Shown here: positions 9,291-22,799 of the stretch, piece by piece
Numbering within the stretch: the first letter of the stretch is position 1
How the letters are laid out: each line of letters begins with the position of its first letter
Assembly: GCA_964640575.1 (NCBI GenBank)
Contig: CAZXGV010000001.1
Coordinates: 6,815-70,814 of the forward strand
DNA: 64,000 nt
Source of the DNA: an uncultured Dysgonomonadaceae bacterium
GTDB lineage: Bacteria > Bacteroidota > Bacteroidia > Bacteroidales > Dysgonomonadaceae
Reading direction: 5' to 3'
The notes under the pieces: model-generated
The model's database searches: none
What the model saw: the letters and a program-made list of their open reading frames with translations, nothing else
What the model was told of the DNA's origin: nothing
Program-made: the position numbers and the translations under genes

Positions 9291-10145
9291 ATGAAACTAA
9301 AAGTAGCAATTCAAAAAAAAGGTCGTTTGAGTGAGAAGTCGCTCGAACTATTAAAAGAGTGTGGTATAAAAGTCTCTAACGGAGACCGAAAGTTGAAAAC
9401 TGAGGCTAAAAACTTTCCCATGGAGATATTGTTTTTGCGCGATGACGATATACCTCAATATGTAGAACAAGGTGTTGCAGACATTGGGATATTAGGTGAG
9501 AACGAGGTTTTGGAGAGAGACAAAAATGTTCATACAATAGAAAAACTGGGATTTAGTAATTGCAGACTCTCATTAGCTATTCCCAAAGATGATGTTTATA
9601 CTGATGTATCCTTTTTTGAAGGTAAAAAAGTCGCGACAAGCTATCCTAAGATATTACGCAACTTTTTTATTGAGAAAAATATAAATGCTGAAATTGAAGA
9701 AATTGGCGGAAGTGTGGAAATTGCTACCAGTATTGGATTGGCACAAGGAATATTTGATATTGTAAGTACAGGAAGTACGTTGATGATGAACGGACTAAAG
9801 GAAGTAGAGACAGTTTTGAAAAGCGAAGCTGTGTTGATATCCAATAAAAAACTTTCAGAAGAAAAAGCTGCAATCCTAGATAAGTTGATTTTTAGAATAA
9901 AAGCTTATAAAAATGGGATTAAAAGTAAGTATATTGTGCTGAATGCTCCCAATGAATCATTAGACAAGATATGTAAGCTTATTCCAGGAATGCGATTTCC
10001 TACAGTTTTGCCTTTGTCAGGTTCAAGTTGGTCAAGTGTTCACTCTGTAGTGGAAGAAGATGATTTTTGGAATGTGATTAATGCTCTTAAATCGTATGGT
10101 GCAGAGGGTATTTTAGTAGTGCCAATTGAAAAAATGATCCTTTAA
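9291..10145 (+). CDS. hisG: ATP phosphoribosyltransferase (long form)
   Basis: 284 aa starting MKLKVAIQKKGRLSEKSLELL. Motifs include DDIPQYVEQGVADIGILGEN and STGSTL, and there is a C-terminal regulatory domain. It is the first gene of the his cluster. Confidence 0.9.
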   Translation: MKLKVAIQKKGRLSEKSLELLKECGIKVSNGDRKLKTEAKNFPMEILFLRDDDIPQYVEQGVADIGILGENEVLERDKNVHTIEKLGFSNCRLSLAIPKDDVYTDVSFFEGKKVATSYPKILRNFFIEKNINAEIEEIGGSVEIATSIGLAQGIFDIVSTGSTLMMNGLKEVETVLKSEAVLISNKKLSEEKAAILDKLIFRIKAYKNGIKSKYIVLNAPNESLDKICKLIPGMRFPTVLPLSGSSWSSVHSVVEEDDFWNVINALKSYGAEGILVVPIEKMIL

Positions 10146-10234
10146 TATACGTTTGCTAGATGTGTGCACGAAAGAAGAGACGTTGCACACAACCTCTTTT
10201 ACACAATTGGAAACAGTAAGATATAAATAAGAGA

Positions 10235-11527
10235 ATGATAAAAACAATCATTAACCCAAAAGTTGACGAGTGGACTAAACTGCAAGAGCGTCCAGTCGTA
10301 AATCAAGGCAGTTTGTTTGAAGTTGCGGAAAATATATTTAATGATGTTCGGACAACTGGTGATATAGCTGTCTCCAAATACAGTCGACAGTTTGATGGTG
10401 TCAATTACAGCTTTTCACCACTTGGATTAAACTTTATTCGAGATGCAGAAAGTGAAGTCCCAACTTCATTGAAAGAGAGTATTGAGAAAGCCTATCACAA
10501 CATATATAAGTTTCATGCATCGCAAACCGAGTATGCAAAGAAGATTGAAACTACTCAAGGAGTAACATGTTGGCGCGAAAGTCGCTCCATCGACAAAGTA
10601 GGTCTTTATATACCAGGCGGCTCTGCTCCTCTATTCTCGACTGTGTTGATGTTGGGAATTCCAGCTAAAATAGCAGGATGCAAAGAGGTAGTTCTTTGTA
10701 CACCCCCCGACAAAAATGGAGAAATTAACCCTCTTATCTTGTATGCTGCCAACTTGGTGGGCATTCAAAAAGTTTATGCAGTGGGTGGCATTCAGGCAAT
10801 TGCTGCCATGGCATTTGGCACGGAGTCTATTCCCAAAGTAGATAAAATATTTGGTCCAGGCAATCAGTATGTTACTGCAGCAAAACAAATTGCACAACTT
10901 TATGGCACAGCCATCGATATGCCTGCTGGACCGAGCGAAGTGTTGATTATTGCCGATGATTCGTCTGATCCGGAGTTTGTATCTGCCGATTTGCTTTCGC
11001 AAGCAGAACATGGTCCCGATAGTCAAGTGATATTATTGTCGGACAACGAAACTGTTATTAATAATGTAAATTTTGCTTTGCAGAAACAACTGGAACAACT
11101 GTCTCGTAAGGAAATTACAGAAAAAGCTTTGGAGAATAGTAGAGCTATACTGTTTGAGTCTATTGATGCCTGTATCAACTTTAGCAACGGGTATGCTCCC
11201 GAGCATTTGATTTTAGCAATCCGCAATGCGGACGATAAGATAGGGAAAGTGCAAAGTGCTGGTTCGGTGTTTTTAGGAAACTATAGCTGCGAGAGTGTTG
11301 GCGACTATGCTTCGGGCACCAATCATACATTGCCAACCAATGGTTTTGCACGCTCATATAGTGGTGTATCTGTTGATAGTTTTGTGAAAAAAATTACCTT
11401 CCAATCTGTTTCAGAAGCGGGATTAAAGAATATTGGTCCGTCAGTAGAAATCATGGCAGAAGCTGAACAACTGATGGCTCATAAGGATGCGGTTACAATC
11501 CGTTTACGTAAAATTGATAAAGAATGA
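10235..11527 (+). CDS. hisD: histidinol dehydrogenase
   Basis: 430 aa. Motifs include GGIQAIAAMAFGTESIPKVDKIFGPGNQYV, SQAEHGPDSQ and GDYASGTNHTLPT. Confidence 0.92.
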   Translation: MIKTIINPKVDEWTKLQERPVVNQGSLFEVAENIFNDVRTTGDIAVSKYSRQFDGVNYSFSPLGLNFIRDAESEVPTSLKESIEKAYHNIYKFHASQTEYAKKIETTQGVTCWRESRSIDKVGLYIPGGSAPLFSTVLMLGIPAKIAGCKEVVLCTPPDKNGEINPLILYAANLVGIQKVYAVGGIQAIAAMAFGTESIPKVDKIFGPGNQYVTAAKQIAQLYGTAIDMPAGPSEVLIIADDSSDPEFVSADLLSQAEHGPDSQVILLSDNETVINNVNFALQKQLEQLSRKEITEKALENSRAILFESIDACINFSNGYAPEHLILAIRNADDKIGKVQSAGSVFLGNYSCESVGDYASGTNHTLPTNGFARSYSGVSVDSFVKKITFQSVSEAGLKNIGPSVEIMAEAEQLMAHKDAVTIRLRKIDKE

Positions 11528-12555
11528 ATATAAATATTAGTAAGCTGGTACGACAAAACATACTCAATTTGTCTCCCTACTCCAGCGCACGAGATGAGTT
11601 TTCAGGTACTGAAGGGGTTTTCCTCGATGCAAACGAAAATCCAAAGGGCAATCACAATCGTTATCCGGATCCACATCAATCGGAGCTTAAAAATGTGCTT
11701 GGTAAAGTGAAGTCTATTTCACCTGAAAATATTTTTATAGGCAATGGGAGCGATGAGGTTATTGATCTAATATTTCGCACATTTGCCAATCCTGGCAAGG
11801 ATAAAGCAATCGTTTGTCCGCCTACTTACGGCATGTATGAGGTGTCTGCAAATATAAATGATGTGGAGGTTGTTACTATTCCATTGCTTGCCAATTTTCA
11901 ACTAAACAAGCAAGCCATTTTTGAAACAATAGAGCAAGACGAATCAGTGAAGTTGATTTTCATCTGCTCGCCCAACAATCCTACTGGGAATTTGATTGAA
12001 GGAATTGAGGAAATTGTTGAGAAGTTCAATGGTATAGTGATTGTAGATGAGGCATACATCGACTTCAGCCCTGAGGATTCAAAAGCTCAACTCATTCATC
12101 ACTATAACAACCTCATTGTGTCTCAAACTTTAAGCAAGGCTTGGGGCTTGGCAGGAATTAGAGTGGGGTTTGCTTTTGCACAATCAGAAATTATCACACT
12201 GCTCAACAAAATTAAGCCACCTTATAATATTAGTGTGCTCAATCAACAGCAAGCTCTTGTAAGGTTATCGAAACCTGAAGAGTTTGAATCTGAAAGGACT
12301 GAGGTTCTTGCTGAAAGGGAGAGATTAGAAAAGGAGCTGTTGCAATTAGTAATGGTGCGGAAGATTTATCCTTCAAACGCCAACTTCCTATTAGTAGAAG
12401 TGGATAATGCAAACAAGGTATATAATGCTTTAGTAGGAAAAAACGTAATAATTAGAAATCGTGATTCGGTTATTAAAAACTGTGTACGAATAACAGTAGG
12501 CACAAAAGAAGAAAATGATATTTTACTGACAGAACTAAAAGATATTTCACAATGA
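11524..12555 (+). CDS. hisC: histidinol-phosphate aminotransferase
   Basis: 343 aa. Motifs include [15 protein letters not shown] and the PLP-lysine motif [15 protein letters not shown]. Its start overlaps the hisD stop by 4 nt. Confidence 0.9.
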
Positions 12556-13643
12556 AAAAAGTGTTGTTTATAGATCGTGATGGAACGCTAATTATTGAAC
12601 CTCCCGTTACTTATCAAATAGATAGTTTAGAAAAGTTAGAGTTCTATCCACATGTTTTTCAATACATGGCACGTATTGCTAACGAGTTGGATTATGAGCT
12701 TGTATTGGTGTCCAATCAAGATGGATTGGGAACTGACTCTTTCCCAATGGATACTTTTATCCCTGCTCACCAAAAGTTTATTCAAGCATTTGCCAATGAG
12801 GGGGTGGTATTTAAAGAGGAGTTGATAGATCCATCTTTTCCCGAAGACAATTCTCCGGGTCGCAAACCAGGCACTGCCATGCTCACACACTATATAAAGG
12901 GAAACTACGACCTCAAAAACTCTTTTGTGATAGGTGATAGAGAAACGGATGTAGAGTTGGCAAAAAACATGGGATGTAAAGCAATCTATTTAAATAAAGA
13001 GGTGCATCCTGATGCTGCTTTGAGTACAACAGAATGGTCTGAAGTATATTCATTTCTAAAGAGTGAACCACGTAAAGCAACTATCACGCGCAAAACTGCC
13101 GAAACGGACATCAGTATCACTGTCAATTTAGATGGAACAGGTAAAGGTAACATCAACACTGGGTTGCACTTCTTCGATCACATGTTGGATCAAATTGCCA
13201 GACATGGCAAAATTGACTTAACAGTTCAGGTTGATGGAGACTTAGAAGTGGATGCTCATCACACTGTTGAGGATACTGCAATAGTGTTGGGTGAAGCCAT
13301 TTTGCAAGCTATTGGGAGCAAAAAAGGGATTGAGCGCTATGGATTCCTTCTTCCAATGGACGATTGCTTGGCACAAGTTGCCATTGACTTTGGTGGGCGT
13401 CCTTGGTTGATATGGGATGTGGATTTTAAGTATGAAAAAATTGGAGATGTACCCACTGAGATGTTTTCTCACTTCTTCAAATCGTTTACCGATTCGGCAA
13501 AATGCAACTTGAACATCAAAGCCGAAGGTGAGAACCAGCACCACAAAATAGAAGCTATTTTTAAAGCTTTTGCAAAAGCTATTAAGAATGCGGTGAAGAT
13601 TGGCGATGACTTTCAAATTCCGAGTACAAAAGGTGTGCTTTAG
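12552..13643 (+). CDS. hisB: bifunctional histidinol-phosphatase / imidazoleglycerol-phosphate dehydratase
   Basis: 363 aa. The N-terminal HAD motif is FIDRDGTL with VSNQDG. The C-terminal IGPD motifs are [12 protein letters not shown] and [16 protein letters not shown]. It overlaps hisC by 4 nt. Confidence 0.92.
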
Positions 13644-13675
13644 TTCAAGTTTCTAATTCCTAAACAGATAAAACA

Positions 13676-14413
13676 ATGAGAATAATTCCAGCCATAGATA
13701 TAATCGATGGTAAGTGTGTTCGCTTGACTAAAGGCGACTACAACACAGAGAAAGTATATAGTACCAATCCGCTTGAAGTAGCAAAAAACTATGAAGCCAA
13801 TGGCATCAAGTACTTGCACTTAGTAGATTTAGATGGCGCAAAATCCAGCAATATCGTCAATCACAAAATATTGCATGATATTGCCACACAAACATCTTTG
13901 AAAATAGATTTTGGTGGTGGCATAAAAACCGATGAGGATGCACGCATTGCATTTGACAACGGAGCAACGCAGATAACAGGAGGCAGCATAGCTGTTCAAA
14001 ATCCTGACTTGTTTCAATCGTGGATTGAGAAATATGGTTCGGATAAAATAATTTTGGGTGCTGATAGTCTACACCGCAAAATTGCTACACATGGTTGGCT
14101 AAAACAGTCGGAGCTGGATGTAATTGATTTCATCAATGAATATCAAGGAAGAGGTATATCCTATGTTATTTGTACAGATATCTCCAAGGATGGTATGTTG
14201 CAAGGACCTTCTATTAATTTGTACAGTGAAATTTTGTACAATAATAAGGTGAAACTTATTGCTAGCGGCGGGGTGTCATCCATTCAAGATGTGTATGAAT
14301 TGGCAGAAATTGGGTGCGAAGGTGCGATTATTGGAAAAGCCATCTACGAAAACAGAATATCGATGAAGCAACTAAACAAGTTCATTTCAGTGTATAAGTC
14401 AACTAACATTTAA
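13676..14413 (+). CDS. hisA: ProFAR isomerase (1-(5-phosphoribosyl)-5-[(5-phosphoribosylamino)methylideneamino]imidazole-4-carboxamide isomerase)
   Basis: 245 aa. Motifs include [24 protein letters not shown] and ASGGVSS. Confidence 0.9.
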
Positions 14414-14425
14414 AACTTACTAGCT

Positions 14426-15175
14426 ATGGCTACAAAAAAAATAATACCCTGTCTCGACATCAAAAACGGTAATGTTGTAAAAGGGGTCAATTTCGTTAAT
14501 ATCAACGAAGTAGGCAACCCCGTTGAGTTTGCCAAGCGATATGAACAAGAAGGCGCCGACGAGTTGGTGTTGCTAGACATTTCAGCAACGGATGAAAACC
14601 GTGGGACCGTGTTGGAATTAGTCGCACAAGTATCGGAAGAAATAAACATTCCATTCACGGTTGGTGGAGGCATTTGCTCTGTGGATGGAGCGCAAGCAGT
14701 AATTGCATCTGGTGCAGACAAAGTGAGCATTGGCTCGGCAGCAATAAGGAATCCTGAATTGATTACACAGATTTCGAATAAGTTGGGTAGAGAAAGGGTG
14801 ATGCTTGCCATCGACTGCAAACTCGACAACAACGAATGGATGGTATATACTAATGGTGGGAAGAAGGCTACTCAGTTGCGAGCACTTGAATGGGCAGTAG
14901 AAGGTGAAGAGTTAGGAGCTGGGAGTATTCTGCTCACTTCGATGAACAACGACGGTGCTAAGAGTGGTTTTGCCATTGATATTACAAAAACGATTGCTGA
15001 GGCAGTGAATATTCCTGTTATTGCATCAGGGGGAGCTGGAATACAAGCGCATTTTTTAGATCTTTTCAAGCAAACAAATGCAGAGGGAGGATTGGCAGCA
15101 AGTGTGTTTCACTATCAAGAGATAAATATTGGCGAACTAAAATCCTATTTGCGTAAGAATGGGGTGAGCATTTAA
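14426..15175 (+). CDS. hisF: imidazole glycerol phosphate synthase, cyclase subunit
   Basis: 249 aa. Motifs include IIPCLDIKNGNVVKGVNF, ADELVLLDISA, PFTVGGGI and PVIASGGAG. Confidence 0.92.
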   Translation: MATKKIIPCLDIKNGNVVKGVNFVNINEVGNPVEFAKRYEQEGADELVLLDISATDENRGTVLELVAQVSEEINIPFTVGGGICSVDGAQAVIASGADKVSIGSAAIRNPELITQISNKLGRERVMLAIDCKLDNNEWMVYTNGGKKATQLRALEWAVEGEELGAGSILLTSMNNDGAKSGFAIDITKTIAEAVNIPVIASGGAGIQAHFLDLFKQTNAEGGLAASVFHYQEINIGELKSYLRKNGVSI

Positions 15176-15232
15176 TAAAAGGACATCGATAAAAAATATT
15201 CAATATGTCTGTATGTACACATTTCTAATATT

Positions 15233-15301
15233 TGTGTTGCGCCAGTAAAAAGCGTTTCATATTTCCCTTTTTGCTACGCAAACACACCGATTACAAATCG
15301 G
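15233..15301 (+). other. two stem-loops inside an inserted spacer between hisF and hisIE
   Basis: Hairpin 1 (15233-15286) is TGTGTTGCG-cc-AGTAAAAAG..loop..CTTTTTGCT-a-CGC-a-AACACA. Hairpin 2 (15287-15301) is CCGATT-aca-AATCGG. The spacer is flanked by the 14-nt direct repeat AAAATATTCAATAT at 15193-15206 and 15342-15355. Confidence 0.5.
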
Positions 15302-15360
15302 CGCGAGCGCAGACGAGATAAACATATAAGAAAACAACAATAAAATATTCAATATATATT

Positions 15361-15948
15361 ATGAAAGTAGATTTCTCGAAACACGATGGATTAGTTCCAG
15401 TAATTATTCAACACATACATACCGACCAAGTACTCATGTTGGGCTATATGAACCAAGAAGCGCTCGATAAAACACAAGCAGAAGGAAGGGTGACTTTTTT
15501 TAGTAGAAGCAAAAACAGGCTGTGGACCAAAGGTGAAGAGTCCAAAAATTATCTTTACTTGAAAGAAATTGCTGTGGATTGCGACAACGATACACTCTTG
15601 ATAAAAGCATTGCCACAAGGACCAACCTGTCATACAGGTAGCACTTCGTGCTTCAAAGAAGAGACTCCAAAAGGTTTCTTATATAAGTTGGAAAGTACTA
15701 TTGAACAACGCATAGCTGATGGAAGTGGTAAATCATACACGAGTTCTCTTTTCAAAAGAGGGGTAAACAAAGTGGCGCAGAAAGTTGGCGAGGAAGCTAT
15801 AGAGTTGGTTATTGAAGCAAAGGATGACAATCTCGATTTGTTTAAAAATGAAGCTGCCGATTTGCTGTATCACTATCTGATTCTGTTGAAAACAAAAGAT
15901 GTGAAGCTAAGGGATATTGAGGAGGTGTTGGAGGAAAGGTCGAAGTAA
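15361..15948 (+). CDS. hisIE: bifunctional phosphoribosyl-AMP cyclohydrolase / phosphoribosyl-ATP pyrophosphatase
   Basis: 195 aa. The cyclohydrolase half has PVIIQH..VLMLGYMN..CHTGSTSCF. The pyrophosphatase half has KVGEEAIELVIEAK..EAADLLYHYLILL. Confidence 0.9.
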   Translation: MKVDFSKHDGLVPVIIQHIHTDQVLMLGYMNQEALDKTQAEGRVTFFSRSKNRLWTKGEESKNYLYLKEIAVDCDNDTLLIKALPQGPTCHTGSTSCFKEETPKGFLYKLESTIEQRIADGSGKSYTSSLFKRGVNKVAQKVGEEAIELVIEAKDDNLDLFKNEAADLLYHYLILLKTKDVKLRDIEEVLEERSK

Positions 15949-16174: not shown

Positions 16175-16903
16175 ATGAAGAATTTTTTAATTGTTGCACT
16201 ATCTGCTTTTATGTTTATTGCATGTGCTCAATCAAAAGAACAATCATCAACGACAGACTTTCACTCTGTTTTTGAAATCCCAGATTCATTACTTACTGTA
16301 GAACAAGAGTCGTTGAAAAGAGAGCTTGTTGACGTTGTAGTCAATCATCTGGATTATAAGGATGATAAGTTTATTTTTCAACTGACAGAAGAAGAGTTTT
16401 TAAAGAAAGGTTTTGCTCCAGAATATTATGATATTATTATCAAAGATACTGATGAAAGTAATCGAGTAATAGAATTAGATGATCACCTTGATTGGAGTGA
16501 ACTACTTAAAAATAAAATTGAAGAGTATAAACAAACAAAACTTCCTAAAACCGATGTTGCTGGAATAGATGATATTCCAAAAGACACTTTAATAGAGTTG
16601 GAATCTTTCGCTGGAAAGCCTGACAGTGAGTTGACAGAAAGTCAATTGGAGGCTAAAGTGAAATTTGCTGCTTTCTTGGAGAAACATTTGAACGTTGAAG
16701 ACAATCAATTTGTACTTAATGTTGAACCGCAAGATTTTGAAAAAGCTGGACTATCAAAATACTATTACAACCTTATGAAGGTGCGTATCGCTGAAGTTAA
16801 CAACTTGATAGATTCTTTGGGTGTAGAGGATTTAGCTGATAAATTCAAAAAGGGCTCTATAGAATATGGGTTTAGTTTGAATTCTTCAGAAGAAGGTGAA
16901 TGA
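16175..16903 (+). CDS. hypothetical lipoprotein with an internal duplication
   Basis: The lipobox signal is MKNFLIVALSAFMFIAC. The protein is acidic. Two related segments are DDKFIFQLTEEEFLKKGFAPEYYDIIIKD and EDNQFVLNVEPQDFEKAGLSKYYYNLMKV. No family was recognised. Confidence 0.7.
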   Translation: MKNFLIVALSAFMFIACAQSKEQSSTTDFHSVFEIPDSLLTVEQESLKRELVDVVVNHLDYKDDKFIFQLTEEEFLKKGFAPEYYDIIIKDTDESNRVIELDDHLDWSELLKNKIEEYKQTKLPKTDVAGIDDIPKDTLIELESFAGKPDSELTESQLEAKVKFAAFLEKHLNVEDNQFVLNVEPQDFEKAGLSKYYYNLMKVRIAEVNNLIDSLGVEDLADKFKKGSIEYGFSLNSSEEGE

Positions 16904-16917
16904 CATAAGTATTGAAG

Positions 16918-16952
16918 AGTAAAGAAATAAAACAATAATTGCTTTACTTTTT
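16918..16952 (+). terminator. possible terminator after the lipoprotein gene
   Basis: AGTAAAG..17 nt..CTTTACT followed by TTTT. The loop is large, so this is weak. Confidence 0.3.
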
Positions 16953-18060
16953 AAATTCTATATTTCTACTGTGTTTTATTGGTTTAGACAGTATTTATTA
17001 TACTTTTATGAAAGTCAACAGATGCAGCAAATCATTTGTAACACTGCCGAATGTATCCAAAGCATCCTCCTTTGGTTTCCGGAAGCTATAACCTTCCGAT
17101 ACATTGTTTCAGAGCTATAAGCTTTCAGTACATTATCTATGAATATAAATAAGTTGTATTTTGTTTTTAATTCCAAATTATTGTATAATATGCACTGTTT
17201 TTATTTGGTAAATGATTGATAAATCTTTATCAAAACATTTTGTTTGCGAACGAAATGCTTTAAACAGTTGAAACTTGCTTCCACGACGGGGGAAATGTTT
17301 GGGAACACATTATTTTCATTTTTTCGCCCTAAATTTTGCCATTTATGCCTTAAAAACTCAATTCCCAGTGTAGAATGCTCTTTTCATCCGTTGATTTTTC
17401 AATCTTAATCTGCTTTTTACTTTTTCAAGACGTTTTTCTTCCATATTTGCTCCAAAAAGCAACATTTTAGTGATTCAAAACATTTAAAAGACCGCGGATT
17501 GCGTTTTCAACAGATGATCGTCAAATCCACCGCCGCGGATTTGATTTCCAACTGTTTTCTGCCCTGCTTTATAATGATTTGTAAAAAAATATGCTCTATT
17601 ATTTACAAATCGACACTTGTGAAATCACAACTGCAATATGAGTGTCAGATAAAACTCCTCTTTTGAGCCGAAAATGCAATTTTTTAAGTAGATTTGAGGT
17701 TGAGGTTGATTGTAAAACTGTAAAATAGCTCCTTCGTTGCAGTTTGTAAACATCTGTACCATTAGCGATATTTAACACTTTGTTTGTTTCATTTTTCAAT
17801 CCCACACTCGCACCAAATTGCAATTTAAATCTCGCGCGTAGAAAAATAGAAGTATTTGTCGGCCGCAATACACAACTCAAAAACTTGCACCAACTGGAGA
17901 GTCAAAGTTGAAACAGATAGTTTTGCTTTGACTTCTGATTATCCCTTTTATTAATTCTATTATCTCCACTGTTCCAAACTAATCAGTCTAACTCTTTTTA
18001 TTCGCATGTTACTTTTTCTTTTATTTATTACAATCTTCACGGTAAAAAGAGGAAAAACAT

Positions 18061-18108
18061 TTGCTTAGTGAACAATAGTTCATTACCTTTGTCGTGAACA
18101 TTAAGCAA
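18061..18108 (+). promoter_or_regulatory. promoter region of the DUF134 operon with an embedded palindrome
   Basis: The -7 box TACCTTTG (18084-18091) matches TAnnTTTG, 26 nt before the ATG. The palindrome TGAAC-aata-GTTCA (18069-18082) lies between the -33 and -7 positions. GTGAACA is repeated at 18093-18099. TTGCTTA and TAAGCAA form an outer inverted pair (18061-18067 and 18102-18108). Confidence 0.4.
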
Positions 18109-18116
18109 AAAAGAAC

Positions 18117-18716
18117 ATGTCTGCACGTATAAGAAGACCTCGTAAAATATTAAGCCCCCCTCCCATAAAGGGTTTCAAGCCTTATGGAATAGATCCAGAT
18201 GTGAAGCCGTCAAAGAATTCTGTCAATTTGTTGTTTGAAGAATATGAAGCATTACGATTGAGTGATTATGACGGGCTCAATCATCACCAATCATCATTGA
18301 TGATGGATGTTTCGCGTCCTACTTTCACGCGTATATATGCAGCAGCACTGCAAAAAGTAGCCACTGCATTTGTTGAAGGGCGACAAATAGTTATTGAAGG
18401 CGGTAAAGTTTATTTCGATAGCGATTGGCATCAGTGCAATGCGTGTGAATGCTATTTTAGTCATCCACACAAACACTTACCTATCGAGGAGTGTCCACTG
18501 TGTGGTAGCGAAGATATTTCTGATTTCGATTTACCAGAAGAGGAGCACAATCATTTACGTGATGCTAGAAAACAATGTGTTTGTACTCATTGTCAATTAG
18601 AGCAAGCTCATCAGCCTGGTAAACCCTGCAAAGAGGAGGTTTGCCCAAAGTGTGGACACTTTATGAAACGAAAAGAGGCTCCAGGAAGACGAAACCGTAA
18701 AATGAAAGGAATATGA
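18117..18716 (+). CDS. UPF0251/DUF134-family predicted DNA-binding protein with a Cys-rich C-terminal extension
   Basis: The N-terminal ~100 aa are RRPRKILSPPPIKGFKPYG...LLFEEYEALRLSDYDGLNHHQSSLMMDVSRPTFTRIYAAALQKVATAFVEGRQIVIEGG. This follows the DUF134 pattern (RKxR, FKPxG, sigma70-region-4-like HTH, IxIEGG). The C-terminal ~95 aa hold 11 Cys arranged as CxxCxC..CxxC..CxCxxC..C..CxxC. Confidence 0.8.
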   Translation: MSARIRRPRKILSPPPIKGFKPYGIDPDVKPSKNSVNLLFEEYEALRLSDYDGLNHHQSSLMMDVSRPTFTRIYAAALQKVATAFVEGRQIVIEGGKVYFDSDWHQCNACECYFSHPHKHLPIEECPLCGSEDISDFDLPEEEHNHLRDARKQCVCTHCQLEQAHQPGKPCKEEVCPKCGHFMKRKEAPGRRNRKMKGI

Positions 18717-19039
18717 AAGTAGCAATAGCTTCAACTGGAAGCACGCTTGAATCGACTGTAGATAGTAGCTTTGGTCGCTGTGCTTGGTTCATTATAATTG
18801 ATACCGAGAGTGGTGGAATGGAATTTATTCCCAACACCAATCGCGATTTGGAGGAGCATGCTGGCAAAGCGGCAGTAGAGTTGGTGGCGACACGCAATGT
18901 GGAGATGATTGTGTCGGGTGAATTTGGTGCTAAAATCAAGCCATTGCTTGATAGCATGCACATACAGATGGTGGTGATAAAGGATTCGGAAAAAAGAATC
19001 AGTGATATCATCACATTATTAAATAATAGGAGAAAATAG
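18713..19039 (+). CDS. NifX/NifB-C-terminal-like (dinitrogenase FeMo-cofactor-binding fold, COG1433-type) small protein 1
   Basis: 108 aa with MKVAIAS...SSFGRCAWFIIID...HAGKAAVELVATRNVEMIVSGEFGAKIKPLL. This is the typical hFGR...f.i.D / G.G. architecture. An ATGA overlap links it to the upstream gene. Confidence 0.8.
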   Translation: MKVAIASTGSTLESTVDSSFGRCAWFIIIDTESGGMEFIPNTNRDLEEHAGKAAVELVATRNVEMIVSGEFGAKIKPLLDSMHIQMVVIKDSEKRISDIITLLNNRRK

Positions 19040-19042
19040 ATT

Positions 19043-19228
19043 ATGCCAAAATTAGATGGTACAGGTCCCGAAGGAAAGGGCAAAGGAACAGGAAGAGGAC
19101 TGGGAAAGTGTAGGGATGTTTCTGACGAAGAGAAACTCGCAAAACTAGGTAAAGGAATGGGTAAGAGACGCAATTCATGCACAGAGGAAGGTCGTGGTAA
19201 GCGGCTGAATGCAGGGTTGAGAAAATAA
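19043..19228 (+). CDS. DUF5320-like Gly/Lys/Arg-rich mini-protein 1 (61 aa)
   Basis: The N-terminus is MPKLDGTGPEGKGKGTGRGLGKC, which fits the MPxxDGTGPxGxGPxTGRGxGxC head I associate with DUF5320. It starts 3 nt after the previous stop. Confidence 0.7.
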   Translation: MPKLDGTGPEGKGKGTGRGLGKCRDVSDEEKLAKLGKGMGKRRNSCTEEGRGKRLNAGLRK

Positions 19229-19256
19229 TTTAACTAACTTAAAATAGGAGGGCACA

Positions 19257-19574
19257 ATGCCAAATTTAAATCAAAGAGGTCCGATGGGAGAAGGTCCCAT
19301 GACAGGGCGCAAAATTGGTCGTTGCACCAATATGGGTGCGAGACGCAGAAATCAAATAATAGAAGAGAACGAGAATGTTGAAAGTTCAATGAATGATGAT
19401 TACCGTGGACAGGGTTTTGGAAGAGGTCGTGGACGTGGACGTGGAATGGGGCGAGGCTTAAGAAACGCTATGAGTTTCAATCGTGGTGGTGGTCGCGGAA
19501 TCGGGCGAAACCGTGGAAGCGATGGTCGTGGGATGGGAATGGGTCGCAGATTTCGTGACGGCATTCAAGAGTAA
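19257..19574 (+). CDS. DUF5320-like mini-protein 2 with an Arg-Gly repeat tail (105 aa)
   Basis: The N-terminus is MPNLNQRGPMGEGPMTGRKIGRC. The tail is GQGFGRGRGRGRGMGRGLRN...NRGGGRGIGRNRGSDGRGMGMGRRFRDG. Confidence 0.7.
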   Translation: MPNLNQRGPMGEGPMTGRKIGRCTNMGARRRNQIIEENENVESSMNDDYRGQGFGRGRGRGRGMGRGLRNAMSFNRGGGRGIGRNRGSDGRGMGMGRRFRDGIQE

Positions 19575-19609
19575 CTTTCAATAGGATTATCAAACAACTA
19601 TAATAAAAT

Positions 19610-19637
19610 ACAAGCTTTATTTAGAAATAAGGCTTGT
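19610..19637 (+). other. 12-bp stem-loop in the 91-nt intra-operon gap
   Basis: ACAAGCTTTATT-taga-AATAAGGCTTGT (one G-U pair). It is followed by gttacttt rather than a clean T-run. Confidence 0.45.
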
Positions 19638-19665
19638 GTTACTTTAAAACAAAACAAACTTAACT

Positions 19666-20034
19666 ATGACAAAGAAAAGAATCGCAATTCCGATGGTCAA
19701 CAACTTGTTATCGGAACATTTTGGACATTGCCAAGCATTTGCATTTGTGGATGTCGAAAACGACATCATCACAGAAATTACAACGTTAGATCCACCCGAA
19801 CACACACCAGGGTCTTTCCCCAAATGGGTGGCTGCAAATGGTGCTACTGATGTAATTGCCGGAGGCATGGGAGGCAAGGCTATCGCTCTGTTCAACCAAT
19901 ATGGAGTAAATGCTTTTGTGGGTGCACCAGTGGATACACCAGCCAATTTGGTGAATAAGTTTATTGCAGGCGAATTGACATTGAGTGCCAACTATTGTAG
20001 TCATGATGAAAACCATAGTTGTGGTGGTCATTAA
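19666..20034 (+). CDS. NifX-like (COG1433-type) small protein 2 with a Cys/His tail
   Basis: 122 aa with RIAIPMVNNLLSEHFGHCQAFAFVDVEN...TDVIAGGMGGKAIALFNQYGVNAFVG. The C-terminus is NYCSHDENHSCGGH. Confidence 0.8.
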   Translation: MTKKRIAIPMVNNLLSEHFGHCQAFAFVDVENDIITEITTLDPPEHTPGSFPKWVAANGATDVIAGGMGGKAIALFNQYGVNAFVGAPVDTPANLVNKFIAGELTLSANYCSHDENHSCGGH

Positions 20035-20067
20035 GTTAGCTGTATCACTATCAGAGAATTTAAACAC

Positions 20068-20952
20068 ATGACTAACCAACAAACATTCAAGATAGCGATT
20101 GCTAGCGGAAAAGGGGGGACAGGTAAAACAACCCTCTCTACCAATTTAGCTGCATATATTGCCGAGCGCGAAGCGGTGGTGTTGGTTGATCTTGATGTGG
20201 AAGAACCCAACTCTGGTCTGTTTTTCGATGGCACTTTGGTGCACGAAGAGGATAATCATAACATGACACCCAATTGGGACTCAAGTAAGTGCACCCTTTG
20301 TGGGCTTTGTGAAGAGGTGTGCAATTTTAATGCAATCATCCAACTTGGTGATTCAATAATGGTTTATCCAAAATTGTGTCATAGCTGTTATGCATGTTCC
20401 GAATTATGTCCCGAAAATGCATTGCCCATGGAGCCAACCAAGATTGGGAAGTTACTCGACTTCAAATGGGGCAAGTTGCATTATGTAGAGAGTCGTCTCA
20501 ATGTTGGCGAAGAGCAAGCGGTGTCGAGTATCGCCAAAACTAAACGATATATTGCAGAGAAATATCCACACCTTTCGTTTGCCATTTTCGACTCTCCACC
20601 TGGCACATCGTGCCCCGTGATGGAGGCAACCAAAGATGCAGATTATGTGATATTGGTTACCGAGCCTACACCCTTTGGGCTGCACGACCTGAAACTGGCT
20701 GTTGAAACTATGCGCAAACTTGAAAGAGATTTTGGCGTAGTTATCAATCGTGACGGAATAGGTGATGAAGAGGTAATCAACTATTGTAGTGTAGAGGGCA
20801 TTGAGATATTGTCTAAAATACCCAACAACCGAAAGATAGCAGAGCTATACTCCAAGGGGCATCTTATATATCCTGAGTTCCCAGAAGTGGAAACAGCATT
20901 GAGAGCTATTTTGGAGCACTGCATATCTATAAAGGAAGGAGCACACAAATGA
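20068..20952 (+). CDS. MinD/ParA/NifH-class P-loop ATPase with an inserted 2x[4Fe-4S] ferredoxin domain (COG1149-type), copy A
   Basis: The deviant Walker A is IAIASGKGGTGKTT. Cluster motifs are CTLCGLCEEVC and CHSCYACSELCP. The Walker B region is AIFDSPPGTSCPV. Confidence 0.85.
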   Translation: MTNQQTFKIAIASGKGGTGKTTLSTNLAAYIAEREAVVLVDLDVEEPNSGLFFDGTLVHEEDNHNMTPNWDSSKCTLCGLCEEVCNFNAIIQLGDSIMVYPKLCHSCYACSELCPENALPMEPTKIGKLLDFKWGKLHYVESRLNVGEEQAVSSIAKTKRYIAEKYPHLSFAIFDSPPGTSCPVMEATKDADYVILVTEPTPFGLHDLKLAVETMRKLERDFGVVINRDGIGDEEVINYCSVEGIEILSKIPNNRKIAELYSKGHLIYPEFPEVETALRAILEHCISIKEGAHK

Positions 20953-21872
20953 AAGAGATTGTAGTAATATCAGGTAAGGGTGGAACTGGCAAAACATCGC
21001 TCACAGCTTCGTTTGGCATGATGGGGGCAAAAGATGTAGTGCTAGCCGATTGCGATGTGGATGCTGCAGACATGCATCTATTGATGCAACCAGATTTTGA
21101 GTCTTCTGAAGATTTCTTTAGTGGTGAAGTTGCTTACATCGATCAGAGCAATTGTATTAGTTGTGGTATATGTCAAGATGTGTGCAGGTTTGATGCCATT
21201 TCTGTACACAACGAGCAGTATATTGTCGCACCATTAGATTGTGAAGGATGTGGCTATTGTGCTCGTGTGTGTCCAACGGAAACGATTATTAATAAAGACC
21301 TATTGGTCGGACAACTTTTTATTTCCAACGTAAAAACAAACAGTAAAATGGTGCATGCTCGTCTCGGTATTGGAGCAGACAACTCTGGTAAGTTGGTAGC
21401 CAAAGTGAAAGATGAAGCCAAAGTGCTTGCTCAAAAACATCAGAAAAATTATGTGTTGGTAGATGGTTCGCCAGGCGTTGGTTGTCCAGTAATTTCATCG
21501 CTTTCAGGCGCTAACTTTGCTGTGTTGATTACTGAACCAACCATATCGGGCATCCACGATTTGAAGCGGGTGTATGAATTGGTGAAGAAGTTCAATATCA
21601 AAGCGGGATGCATTATCAACAAAGCCGATGTAAATGTTGAAAAGCAGGCAGAGATAAAACAATTCTTATCGGATGAAGGTATTGAACATTTAATAGATTT
21701 GCCCTACAATGAGGACTTTATCAAAGCTATGACGCTTGGTCAGACTATTGTAGAGTATGATAATGACAATAAAGAATTGACCAACCTGTTAGAACAGGTT
21801 TGGGAGAAAATAAAAGAATTAACAAACAAAAAAGAAGAAAATAATGAAAATAGCTTTTACTGCTGCGGGTAA
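20949..21872 (+). CDS. MinD/ParA/NifH-class P-loop ATPase with an inserted 2x[4Fe-4S] ferredoxin domain (COG1149-type), copy B
   Basis: The deviant Walker A is VVISGKGGTGKTS. Cluster motifs are CISCGICQDVC and CEGCGYCARVCP. The Walker B region is VLVDGSPGVGCPV and the protein ends ..FYCCG. An ATGA overlap links it to copy A. Confidence 0.85.
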   Translation: MKEIVVISGKGGTGKTSLTASFGMMGAKDVVLADCDVDAADMHLLMQPDFESSEDFFSGEVAYIDQSNCISCGICQDVCRFDAISVHNEQYIVAPLDCEGCGYCARVCPTETIINKDLLVGQLFISNVKTNSKMVHARLGIGADNSGKLVAKVKDEAKVLAQKHQKNYVLVDGSPGVGCPVISSLSGANFAVLITEPTISGIHDLKRVYELVKKFNIKAGCIINKADVNVEKQAEIKQFLSDEGIEHLIDLPYNEDFIKAMTLGQTIVEYDNDNKELTNLLEQVWEKIKELTNKKEENNENSFYCCG

Positions 21873-22182
21873 AGATTGGGATGCAATGATTGACCCACGA
21901 TTTGGCAGAACAGAATACATTGTAGTTTTTGATGAGGCAACAGAAGAGTTGTCAGTAATTGATAATAGTGCAGTTAAAAACGAAGCACATGGTGCAGGCA
22001 CTGCAACTTCGAAGAAGATATTTGAACTCAACCCCGATGTGTTGATAACAGGAAATGGTCCGGGTGATAATGCTGCAATGGCATTGGAGAAGATGAATAT
22101 GAAGATATTTGTGGGTGCGCAAGACTTGACGCTGAAGCAGGCGTTGGAGAAGTACCGCAATGCAGAGTTGAAAGAGATATAA
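21844..22182 (+). CDS. NifX-like (COG1433-type) small protein 3
   Basis: 112 aa with MKIAFTAAG...PRFGRTEYIVVFD...HGAGTATSKKIFELNPDVLITGNGPGDNAAMAL. It overlaps ATPase B by 29 nt. Confidence 0.8.
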   Translation: MKIAFTAAGKDWDAMIDPRFGRTEYIVVFDEATEELSVIDNSAVKNEAHGAGTATSKKIFELNPDVLITGNGPGDNAAMALEKMNMKIFVGAQDLTLKQALEKYRNAELKEI

Positions 22183-22198
22183 TACAACTCTTGATTTA

Positions 22199-22239
22199 CT
22201 GGAAGCTTCTACAAATGTACAAGAAGCTTCCAGCTTTTT
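22199..22239 (+). terminator. strong rho-independent terminator closing the eight-gene operon
   Basis: A perfect 12-bp stem, CTGGAAGCTTCT (22199-22210) and AGAAGCTTCCAG (22222-22233), with an 11-nt loop, followed by CTTTTT. Confidence 0.8.
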
Positions 22240-22301
22240 GATCCTGTAAATATAGATTGCCAAAGCAAGGTGCTTTGGGTGCACTGCACACACACTATAA
22301 A

Positions 22302-22799
22302 TTATACTATCTCGGCAAACAGTTCTCTGTTGTAGTCAACATACTTGGCAATGATTTCTGTTTGCGCTTTCTCTATTTGATAATACTGTTCTTCAATTTC
22401 GTCAAACTCTTCAAAGTCTACATACATGGAGTGAAACTCCTCGTCTGTTGTGTCTCTTTCCAACTCTTCGCGGTTGGCATCGAATATCTCTTTGGCTCTA
22501 TAGATAAGCTTTGCTGTTCCATTGGCTCCAAATAGTTTTAAAGCTTTTGCAGTAGGATTGTCAAAGATATAACCGCCATATCCGTTTTGTATCAACTGTA
22601 CAAAACCTCCGTGATTTACTTCTTCCCAAAAGAATCGATAGGCAAGCAGAGCATGTTGGTGACCGTTGAGTTTTTGCATATTCTCTGCATTTAATTCATT
22701 GTCAATTTTGGCAAGGTATGCATCGGTGTATAGATTGATATAATCAATTGGCTCCTTCTTGAGGCTATCGGCAATTTGTTTTTCTGTAATTTGTATCAT
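22302..22799 (-). CDS. DUF4375 / DMP19-like protein
   Basis: ORF 22302..22838 with the likely start at MIQITEKQ (22799). The core FFWEEVNHGGFVQLIQNGYGGYIFDNP resembles the NGGFxQ core of the DMP19 C-terminal domain family. The call is from memory. Confidence 0.6.
   Translation of the reverse strand: MIQITEKQIADSLKKEPIDYINLYTDAYLAKIDNELNAENMQKLNGHQHALLAYRFFWEEVNHGGFVQLIQNGYGGYIFDNPTAKALKLFGANGTAKLIYRAKEIFDANREELERDTTDEEFHSMYVDFEEFDEIEEQYYQIEKAQTEIIAKYVDYNRELFAEIV

Follow-up and report, generated by a model that had tools for sequence, protein, structure and literature searches.

In Desulfovibrio vulgaris Hildenborough, the orp genes encode the orange protein (ORP) complex and lie in two divergent sigma54 operons, DVU2105-DVU2103 and DVU2107-DVU2109, under the control of OrpR (PMC6345978, PMC8359166). 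Two of the products, Orp3 and Orp4, are P-loop ATPases paralogous to each other, and each contains two [4Fe-4S] ferredoxin motifs (PMC6345978, PMC8359166). Orp5, Orp7 and Orp8 are single-domain NifX-like (Di-Nase) proteins, and Orp9, also called MrpORP, consists of an Mrp/NBP35 domain fused to a Di-Nase domain (PMC6345978). Orp3, Orp4 and Orp8 co-purify with an iron-sulfur (Fe-S) spectrum and accept clusters from MrpORP (PMC6345978), and expression of the complex is redox-controlled, at low redox (PMC8359166). Here we report an eight-gene operon at positions 18117-22182 (+ strand) of a 64,000-nucleotide (nt) stretch of DNA, hereafter the window, from an uncultured Dysgonomonadaceae bacterium. 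We propose, with a probability of roughly 55%, that it is an orp-type operon encoding an ORP complex, a proposal that takes in the mechanism and the regulation put forward below.

The operon encodes two ancient paralogous ATPases of the SIMIBI class (SRP/MinD/BioD group), each with a deviant Walker A motif, a two-cluster ferredoxin insert and one switch-II Cys, together with three NifX-like proteins, two DUF5320 mini-proteins and a DUF134 protein. As the initial annotation had described, the eight genes are co-directional, with spacings of -4, +3, +28, +91, +33, -4 and -29 nt, and all of the family assignments that it had made exceeded the Pfam gathering scores. Gene 1 (18117-18716, + strand, as are all eight) encodes a DUF134 regulator of 199 amino acids (aa), with 70.9 bits against a Pfam cut-off of 27. 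The NifX-like proteins are encoded by gene 2 (NifX1, 18713-19039, 108 aa, of the TM1290/MTH1175 type), gene 5 (NifX2, 19666-20034, 122 aa) and gene 8 (NifX3, 21844-22182, 112 aa, a homologue of ORP/Orp8), and scored 56.4, 59.6 and 49.3 bits, respectively, with the Nitro_FeMo-Co model (IPR003731, gathering score 26.3 bits). Genes 3 and 4 encode the DUF5320 mini-proteins a (19043-19228, 61 aa, 41.2 bits) and b (19257-19574, 105 aa, 35.8 bits), both against a cut-off of 27. ATPase A, of the Orp3/Orp4 type (gene 6, 20068-20952, 294 aa), matched Pfam CbiA, ParA and Fer4, and its paralogue ATPase B (gene 7, 20949-21872, 307 aa) matched CbiA/ParA and Fer4 and contains the same motifs.

NifX2 matched the NCBIfam MrpORP model over model positions 264-365 of 365 (104.7 bits, E 6e-30), the only NCBIfam match among the NifX-like proteins, and it was this match that pointed to the D. 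vulgaris ORP complex. The motifs SEHFGHCQ and DPPEHTPGSFP and the C-terminal YCSHDENH of NifX2 match the published Di-Nase motifs of MrpORP, which are CxHFGHCE, TPPPHxPGxxP and CDH (PMC6345978), and its best match in the PDB was TM1816 (1T3V/1O13). From its sequence, NifX2 is the predicted stand-alone counterpart of the C-terminal Di-Nase domain of MrpORP (Orp9). No Mrp-type ATPase was found anywhere in the 64 kb, and MrpORP is present as its Di-Nase half alone, encoded by the separate gene at 19666-20034. The best solved-structure match of NifX3 was the orange protein of Desulfovibrio gigas (2WFB, 'ORP', E 1.3e-14, residues 2-108 of 112), and the best PDB matches of NifX1 were 1RDU (2.6e-9) and 1EO1/MTH1175 (8.4e-7). 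All three NifX-like carriers are acidic, with isoelectric points (pI) of 4.8-5.7.

To compare the operon with its relatives, a scan was carried out with an ATPase alignment, taking one genome per species, which gave 80 related loci (designated by L and a number). They belong to Bacteroidota, Marinimicrobia, Calditrichota, Spirochaetota, Campylobacterota, Cloacimonadota, Planctomycetota, Chloroflexota, Desulfobacterota, Ignavibacteria and archaea. Gene families were mapped with our own open reading frame (ORF) calls, single-round profile hidden Markov models (HMMs) and, for DUF5320, a regular expression. Iterated HMMs were discarded because of drift (from 22 to 365 matches for DUF5320, and from 136 to 389 for NifX). 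DUF134 was counted with an HMM of its helix-turn-helix (HTH) region; a fuller HMM that included the six-cysteine (6-Cys) part also matched 6-Cys mini-proteins. Among the 48 loci with enough flanking DNA, a NifX-like gene was present in all 48, the ATPase pair in 42 and DUF5320 in 31, and all four families were found together in 16, or about a third. The DUF134 HTH was encoded in 36 of the 80 loci. Mrp/NBP35 proteins (PF10609 scores from about 300 bits upwards) were encoded in 31 of the 80, as fusions or as stand-alone proteins, and there is none in the window. The initial annotation had asked for such a gene-neighbourhood comparison and named a lack of conserved co-occurrence as evidence against its proposal; the co-occurrence of the four families proved to be strongly conserved across phyla.

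Seven of the related loci contain an equivalog of MrpORP, a fused P-loop/NifX protein adjoining the ATPase pair, with 502-557 bits against a cut-off of 450. The window ATPases are 44-48% identical to the ATPases adjoining these true MrpORP equivalogs in other phyla. Over 283 residues, ATPase A shares 46% identity with the first ATPase of L036, in which the pair is directly followed by the MrpORP equivalog. Ten related loci encode PAS-sigma54 activators of the OrpR type.

Several further genes recur in the related loci and are absent from the window. They encode S-adenosylmethionine (SAM) methyltransferases (17 loci), ARMT1/DUF89 proteins (16), radical SAM proteins (13), CoA-disulfide-reductase-like proteins with a rhodanese domain (12), Zn_ribbon_8 proteins (9), and metallo-beta-lactamase (MBL)-fold, J-domain and TrmO-like proteins (7 each). 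DVU2103 of D. vulgaris co-eluted with DnaK (PMC3125180), and, together with the J-domain genes, this recalls by analogy the HscA/HscB chaperones of the ISC pathway, which we take as a hint only.

Alignment of the two ATPases with six homologues showed that SGKGGTGKT, two CxxCxxCxxxC motifs and D-x-PPG-xx-C-P are invariant in both paralogues and all homologues, which bears out the GKGGTGKT sequence, the paired ferredoxin motifs and the conserved Cys after Walker B first noticed in the window itself. The eight invariant ferredoxin cysteines are C75/78/81/85 and C104/107/110/114, the last followed by Pro, and they precede the switch-II sequence D175-x-PPG-xx-C182-P. Outside the ferredoxin insert, C182 is the sole invariant Cys. 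It lies 7 residues after the Walker B Asp, a spacing that we take to be that of Asp125 and Cys132 in NifH. ATPases A and B are 31% identical to each other, and the nearest named relative of ATPase A, from Dysgonamonadaceae, is 82% identical to it, which identifies the host as a member of the Bacteroidales. Because the A-type gene precedes the B-type gene in 63 of the 63 ATPase pairs of the related loci, the two appear to descend from an ancient duplication, which fits an obligate heterodimer. Homologues of ATPase A are widespread, with at least 8000 candidates in a protein search, from more than a dozen phyla including archaea.

In the AlphaFold2 model of ATPase A (pLDDT 85.8), the core resembles MinD, and residues ~55-125, which follow switch I, form the inserted ferredoxin domain. 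In a Foldseek search of the PDB with this model, MinD, McdA, FleN, ApbC, Cfd1, HypB, NifH and BchL all gave template modelling (TM) scores of ~0.5-0.6. The minD models gave 40-59 bits on the window ATPases against cut-offs of 202-213, below membership of the MinD family, and Fer4_NifH gave 19-23 bits against a cut-off of 25, with one candidate Cys per subunit, short of what defines the NifH/BchL family. By their motifs or scores, A and B belong to neither the Mrp/NBP35, nor the MinD, nor the NifH family.

The differences from these three families can be traced in the motifs and in the partner genes. With the Mrp/NBP35/ApbC carriers, including MrpORP/Orp9, the window ATPases have in common the deviant Walker A motif GKGGxGK[ST] and a DxPPGT switch II. 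In an alignment with the cluster-linked Mrp of L048, however, the switch-II sequence is DSPPGTSC in the window and DSPPGTGD in Mrp, so that a Cys stands where Mrp has Asp/Glu; the CxxC motif of Mrp has no counterpart in the window ATPases, and Mrp in turn lacks the inserted ferredoxin domain. With the NifH/BchL reductases they would share the coupling of a dimeric SIMIBI ATPase to Fe-S electron transfer, and the Foldseek TM scores are ~0.57-0.61. Unlike these reductases, they lack the second ligand Cys (the equivalent of Cys97), the operon encodes no partner resembling NifDK or BchNB, and each subunit would have two ferredoxin-type clusters of its own as electron carriers. MinD and ParA have the deviant Walker A in common with the window ATPases and include their best Foldseek matches, but lack an inserted Fe-S domain, and MinC, MinE and ParB have no counterpart in the operon, in which all partners are cluster carriers.

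Comparison with DVU2103-DVU2109 shows what the operon shares with the D. vulgaris system. Both have two paralogous P-loop ATPases with two [4Fe-4S] ferredoxin motifs each, both have several single-domain Di-Nase/NifX-like proteins including an orange-protein homologue, and both occur in anaerobic hosts. The window genes form one operon, in contrast to the two divergent operons of D. vulgaris. The window lacks the Mrp/NBP35 P-loop domain and has the Di-Nase half as a separate gene; it has no sigma54 promoter, OrpR or integration host factor (IHF) control, and has instead a DUF134 HTH-Zn-ribbon-6-Cys protein and a palindrome in a Bacteroidetes-type promoter. It also adds two DUF5320 genes, a family named in no paper that we found. 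Judged from sequence, the core features of an orp locus are present (the ATPase pair, the orange-protein homologue and further single-domain Di-Nase proteins), and two features, the MrpORP fusion and sigma54/OrpR control, are missing. The locus is best regarded as one widespread form of a system that is known but functionally unsolved, and not as a new kind of system; to a specialist, the ORP complex would be immediately recognisable.

This identification alters several statements of the initial annotation. It had described the gene families as domains of unknown or predicted function and the module as without a demonstrated role; for D. vulgaris, the composition, Fe-S binding, regulation and a morphology phenotype of the complex have been published, although the molecular function is still unclear. 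Published characterisation of this gene set, which the annotation had listed as contrary evidence, thus exists in part, in the ORP literature. What it proposed in outline, a metal-sulfur-cluster module that depends on ATP and electrons, in which NifX-like proteins are the carriers and DUF134 the regulator, agrees with our findings, but a role of the ATPases as a NifH/Nbp35-like scaffold is unsupported as family membership, because the CxxC motif of Mrp is absent. A literature search returned no description of a DUF134 operator, of the 6-Cys module or of a DUF5320 component, and this search did not extend to the 2011 survey of orp synteny. That survey is reportedly part of the founding ORP paper, Fievet 2011 (J Bacteriol 193:3207).

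The DUF134 protein contains three modules, an HTH region (aa 1-98), a zinc-ribbon-like CxxC...CxxC (C107-C129, nt 18435-18503) and the 6-Cys module (C154-C179, nt 18576-18653). A profile of 19 DUF134 HTH regions matched DeoR in its DNA-binding domain (7BHY, E 3.9e-6); weaker matches were to Fis and to region 4 of sigma-70. The CxxC...CxxC ribbon is common to many cluster-linked DUF134 proteins. The 6-Cys module has the form CVCxxC-x11-C-x4-CPKC in the window protein. The pattern, in its usual form C[VI]CxxCG-x4-H-x6-C-x5-CPxC, is encoded in 35 of the 80 related loci, in many of them by a separate gene of 65-80 aa, and in Planctomycetota the module is fused to a DUF5320-like N-terminus. No Pfam family matched it above threshold. 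Its recurrence suggests that it is in effect a fifth conserved component of the cluster. Searched against a representative library, the 60-aa 6-Cys segment gave weak results, with 53 matches of mixed architecture, and long proteins of 700-1500 aa (P0122, P0123, P0126 and others) contain 2-5 copies of a Cys pattern similar to it.

The DNA upstream of five Bacteroidota DUF134 genes was aligned (alignment A3), and contains a near-invariant block, TGAAC-N4-GTTCATTAnnTTTG, in which a 14-bp palindrome abuts the -7 box; GTTCATTAnnTTTG is invariant in all five loci. In the window, the putative -7 box TACCTTTG (TAnnTTTG, 18084-18091, + strand) lies 26 nt before the ATG, and a putative -33 element, TTTG (18059-18062, + strand), kept in four of the five A3 loci, lies 21 nt upstream of it. 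The -33/-7 consensus is that of Bacteroides promoters. The TAnnTTTG promoter of the initial annotation is therefore present, but TAnnTTTG by itself shows no enrichment in the window (89 occurrences, with 78.5 ± 8.1 expected), and the box owes its credibility to its conservation in four other Bacteroidota loci.

The promoter spacer between -33 and -7 is occupied by a candidate operator, TGAACAATAGTTCA (18069-18082), with the palindrome TGAAC-N4-GTTCA. It is conserved in A3 and is the single exact copy of the palindrome in the 64-kb window. An isolated half-site, TGAAC (18096-18100), lies downstream of the -7 box, at a position where a second palindrome occurs in three other Bacteroidota loci. 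It has two mismatches in L003 and is exact in L007 and L029, so that in these two loci the -7 box is flanked by two exact palindromes. The 1,153,507 bp of the related loci contain 16 exact palindromes, with about one expected from 4^10, and all 16 lie within -250 to +120 of where DUF134 or the first cluster gene starts, zones that make up at most 3.7% of this DNA. Symmetric variants such as TGAGCATATGCTCA and TGCACATATGTGCA occur at the equivalent position in other phyla. A DUF134 HTH is encoded in 17 of the 19 loci that have a copy of the palindrome with at most one mismatch.

The palindrome resembles the LexA box of Gram-positive bacteria. A LexA (SOS box) reading of GAAC-N4-GTTC was rejected for this phylum, because the SOS regulators of Bacteroidetes use the different motifs GGA-N5-TCC or CTAA-N5-TTAG (PMC8565304) and all copies lie at orp cluster starts. 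This exclusive location favours a cluster-specific factor. From the position of the candidate operator between the two promoter elements, DUF134 would be a repressor of its own operon.

The two types of regulator were found in separate sets of loci. DUF134 (36 loci) and the sigma54 activators (10 loci) did not overlap (0 loci; hypergeometric P 0.0015, a value that ignores phylogenetic non-independence). Sigma54 promoters (TGGCAY-N5-TTGCW) were found at the cluster starts of five loci (L037:6685, L059:6036, L065:2607, L075:7152 and L051:4230), none of which has the DUF134 palindrome, and four of the five encode a PAS-sigma54 activator (4 of the 10 activator loci). The DNA upstream of the window operon lacks TGGCAY-N5-TTGCW on the + strand, and the flanking genes include no sigma54 activator. 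The simplest reading of these patterns is that DUF134 is a non-orthologous replacement of OrpR. OrpR (DVU2106), an Fe-S-sensing PAS sigma54 activator, and DUF134 would both be dedicated orp regulators with a Cys-based sensor, predicted in the case of DUF134, and a palindrome at the promoter. They differ in fold and action, DUF134 being a small HTH protein and probably a repressor at a promoter of the housekeeping-sigma (Bacteroidetes) type, and the two never co-occur.

We propose the following mechanism for the complex. By extension from the work on D. vulgaris, the A/B heterodimer would bind the orange-protein homologue and carry Fe-S clusters. ATP binding and hydrolysis in the dimer would gate electrons through the ferredoxin domains, and these electrons would assemble, reduce or release anionic inorganic metal-sulfur species, which the acidic NifX-like carriers would hold without a covalent bond, with Fe-S, thioferrate-like and thiometallate species as candidates. 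The cationic, Gly/Arg-rich, single-Cys DUF5320 proteins may serve as electrostatic partners, like the cationic tail of IssA. DUF134 probably binds the palindrome between -33 and -7 and represses its own operon, as comparative genomics suggests, and its zinc-ribbon and 6-Cys modules may sense a metal, a cluster or redox state, with repression lasting until the signal is sensed. In this role it would take the place of the Fe-S-sensing sigma54 activator of Desulfovibrio.

The part assigned to DUF5320 draws on IssA of Pyrococcus furiosus, an iron-sulfur storage protein (PMC5524996). It consists of a NifX-like IPR003731 domain, for which MTH1175 was the modelling template, and after it a cationic, Gly-rich tail, which contains a single Cys and binds anionic thioferrate (PMC5524996). 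Membership of the IssA clade is defined by a cationic C-terminal tail with pI of at least 9, fewer than 5 Cys and at least 20% Gly, in one polypeptide with the IPR003731 domain (PMC5524996). In the window, DUF5320a (pI 10.2, 23% Gly) has the N-terminal motif MPxLDGTGPxGxGxGTGRGLGKC, DUF5320b (pI 11.8, 25% Gly) has an Arg-Gly (RG)-repeat tail, and each contains 1-2 Cys. The 57 matches of the DUF5320 regular expression all start at Met-Pro, with the motif MPxxDGTGPxGxGPMTGRGxGxC, and have medians of 112 aa, pI 9.8, 24% Gly, 10% aromatic residues and one Cys. This composition agrees with the compositional part of the IssA-clade definition. NifX1, which resembles the modelling template of IssA, and DUF5320a are encoded by adjacent genes 3 nt apart, and in L029 (8672-9181) they form a single ORF with the domain order of IssA. 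Another apparent fusion, DUF5320::NifX at L083:7324-7968, was rejected as a probable read-through, since it has a K/N-rich linker and retains the Met of NifX2.

These similarities could mean that the module as a whole serves in iron-sulfur storage and mobilisation, with the NifX-like and DUF5320 proteins nucleating thioferrate-like polymers as IssA does and the ATPase pair reducing and releasing them for Fe-S clusters. The domain composition of IssA (PMC5524996), the match of NifX1 to MTH1175 with DUF5320a directly after it, the single ORF of L029 and the composition of DUF5320 all fit this explanation. It is nevertheless unlikely. The pairing of a NifX-like (IPR003731) domain with a cationic, Gly-rich, single-Cys disordered segment is common to both systems, but the parts are encoded by separate genes in the window, and the likeness of DUF5320 to the IssA tail is one of composition. 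The N-terminal motif of DUF5320 is sharply conserved, which points to a specific interaction more than to charge alone. There is no regulator responsive to iron or sulfide, and the L083 fusion appears to be read-through.

Somewhat less likely still is the hypothesis published for D. vulgaris, by which the module would be a cell-division or positioning system, A and B acting like MinD/ParA and their Fe-S clusters merely sensing redox. MinD, McdA and FleN were the top Foldseek matches of the ATPase, but the structural matches to Mrp, HypB, NifH and BchL were about as good as that to MinD. A further point in its favour is that neither Bacteroidales nor D. vulgaris is known to have MinCDE. In D. 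vulgaris, the morphology of orpR mutants is defective, MrpORP is found at a pole, and a C-terminal amphipathic helix has been ascribed to Orp3/4 (PMC8359166, PMC6345978). On the other hand, no MinC, MinE or ParB partner is encoded in the flanks of the window operon, and all conserved partners (the NifX-like proteins, Mrp/NBP35 and the Cys-rich modules) are of the metal-cluster type. The cluster is also common in Planctomycetota/Phycisphaerae and occurs in archaea. Many Planctomycetota are not known to have FtsZ, and this distribution therefore argues against a conserved role at the Z-ring.

The orange protein itself suggests a third explanation, in which the homologue would be the binding site of a Mo-Cu (or W) sulfide cluster and the module would buffer or deliver thiomolybdate or thiotungstate. 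NifX3 is the closest relative of the ORP of D. gigas, a protein whose [S2MoS2CuS2MoS2] cluster is not covalently bound (cited in PMC6345978), and a link to molybdopterin enzymes was proposed by the authors of a study of Archaeoglobus fulgidus (PMC3949148). We regard this as very unlikely, as no mod, tup, moa, moe or copper genes were found in the flanks (5.1-33.4 kb of the window) or among the ten most recurrent neighbour families, and the recurrent radical SAM protein scored ~61-64 bits against cut-offs of 284-380 for MoaA and W-enzyme maturases. A role in nucleic-acid or protein modification, in which the RG-rich DUF5320 proteins would bind RNA or be methylated and the Fe-S ATPases would support radical or redox modification, fits the RG-repeat tails and the recurrence of SAM methyltransferase (17), radical SAM (13), TrmO-like (7) and ARMT1/DUF89 (16) genes but is highly improbable, as none of these enzymes is encoded in the window, each is an accessory found in at most 17 of the 80 loci, and the universal partners are the NifX-like carriers (48 of 48).

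Several points weigh against the orp-type operon that we propose, with its cluster-handling mechanism. The molecular function of the ORP complex is called unclear in D. vulgaris, and the hypothesis published there is cell division and not cluster handling (PMC8359166). Orthology of A and B to DVU2103/DVU2104 is inferred from architecture and from synteny with the MrpORP and ORP homologues, and not from direct alignment. As judged from the predicted model, the Foldseek scores of MinD, ParA, Mrp, HypB and NifH are too similar to set the ATPase apart from any of them, and therefore the fold does not decide the function. A bridging cluster is not evident in the sequences of A and B, because each has one extra conserved Cys and lacks the CxxC of Mrp. 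The link between DUF5320 and IssA is an analogy of composition, and the DUF5320 proteins of the window have almost no aromatic residues, unlike the IssA tail. The association of DUF134 with the predicted operator is statistical, and in L023 (9573) and L033 (9706) an exact palindrome, TGAACATAWGTTCA, lies upstream of a cluster that starts with DUF5320, with no DUF134 gene in the fetched flank; the regulator for these copies may be encoded elsewhere. Finally, no client enzyme or metal transporter is linked to the operon in the window, and none recurs in the related loci.

The orp-type reading can be widened. Tentatively, and with more doubt than we attach to the locus itself, the orp module may constitute a widespread, anaerobe-specific fourth metal-sulfur route beside ISC, SUF and NIF, with an ATP-gated, ferredoxin-wired heterodimer by which anionic Fe-S, thioferrate or thiometallate species would be put onto the NifX-like carriers or taken off them, detachable IssA-like tails in the form of the cationic DUF5320 proteins, a new class of Cys-rich DUF134 repressors that would bind TGAACATATGTTCA and control the module in many phyla, and the 6-Cys module, in its form as an uncatalogued mini-protein, as a transferable sensor.

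The surroundings of the operon were as the initial annotation had outlined. A terminator with a perfect 12-bp stem follows the last gene (22199-22239, + strand), the stem being formed by 22199-22210 and 22222-22233 with an 11-nt loop, followed by CTTTTT (-18.8 kcal/mol, z = -4.95; 0 of 200 shuffles folded equally well). Automatic sigma-70 promoter and terminator scans of the locus were uninformative; the terminator scan was limited to loops of at most 8 nt and hence missed this hairpin. The absence of nif, hydrogenase or other client genes nearby was confirmed in the flanks, which contain a histidine operon upstream and unrelated genes downstream. The histidine operon (9291-15948; hisG, hisD, hisC, fused hisB, hisA/hisF and hisIE) is ordinary, and has the same synteny in L083, a syntenic relative with 85% identity. 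It is followed by an ORF of 242 aa (16175-16903) with a lipoprotein-like signal (MKNFLIVALSAFMFIAC) and no Pfam family, which appears by eye to be internally duplicated.

The 1.2 kb upstream of the operon is non-coding, as had been noted: 16904-18116 contains no ORF longer than 93 aa and no Pfam or Rfam match. Rfam scans, at the gathering threshold for the window and by E-value for 16850-22400, returned a single chance match to HOTAIR and nothing real. L083 has a Y1 transposase fragment and a DUF6261 gene in the equivalent spacer position, and conservation between it and the window upstream of the DUF134 start is confined to the last ~95 nt. The spacer proper (16904-18021, 1.1 kb) is ORF-free and AT-rich and is not homologous to the equivalent position in L083; an origin of the 1.2 kb as a relic of the neighbour genes was rejected, as there is no similarity to the Y1 transposase fragment or the DUF6261 gene. 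The spacer also contains an imperfect 32-nt inverted repeat (17262-17293 and 17526-17557). At the other end of the operon, the NifX3 gene starts 29 nt before the end of the ATPase B gene, within the part that encodes the C-terminal tail of the ATPase (...NSFYCCG; 21844-21872). This tail seems specific to the present lineage, because ATPase B of L083 has 291 aa and does not overlap the orange-protein homologue.

The ORP complex is among the most widely distributed anaerobe-specific protein sets of unsolved function, and Fe-S biogenesis in anaerobes is poorly understood. The present locus places the ORP core in Bacteroidales, relatives of gut bacteria for which genetic tools exist, in a single compact operon with a simple promoter. 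The sequence comparison offers a first candidate function and a predicted binding site for the DUF134/UPF0251 family, and it also yields a putative fifth component, the 6-Cys module, and a possible link, by analogy, between DUF5320 and the storage principle of IssA. The predicted autoregulatory operator is a tractable handle, as the signal that releases DUF134 from TGAAC-N4-GTTCA should reveal the cue to which the module responds. A compact operon and a predicted repressor-operator pair make the question of ORP function more testable.

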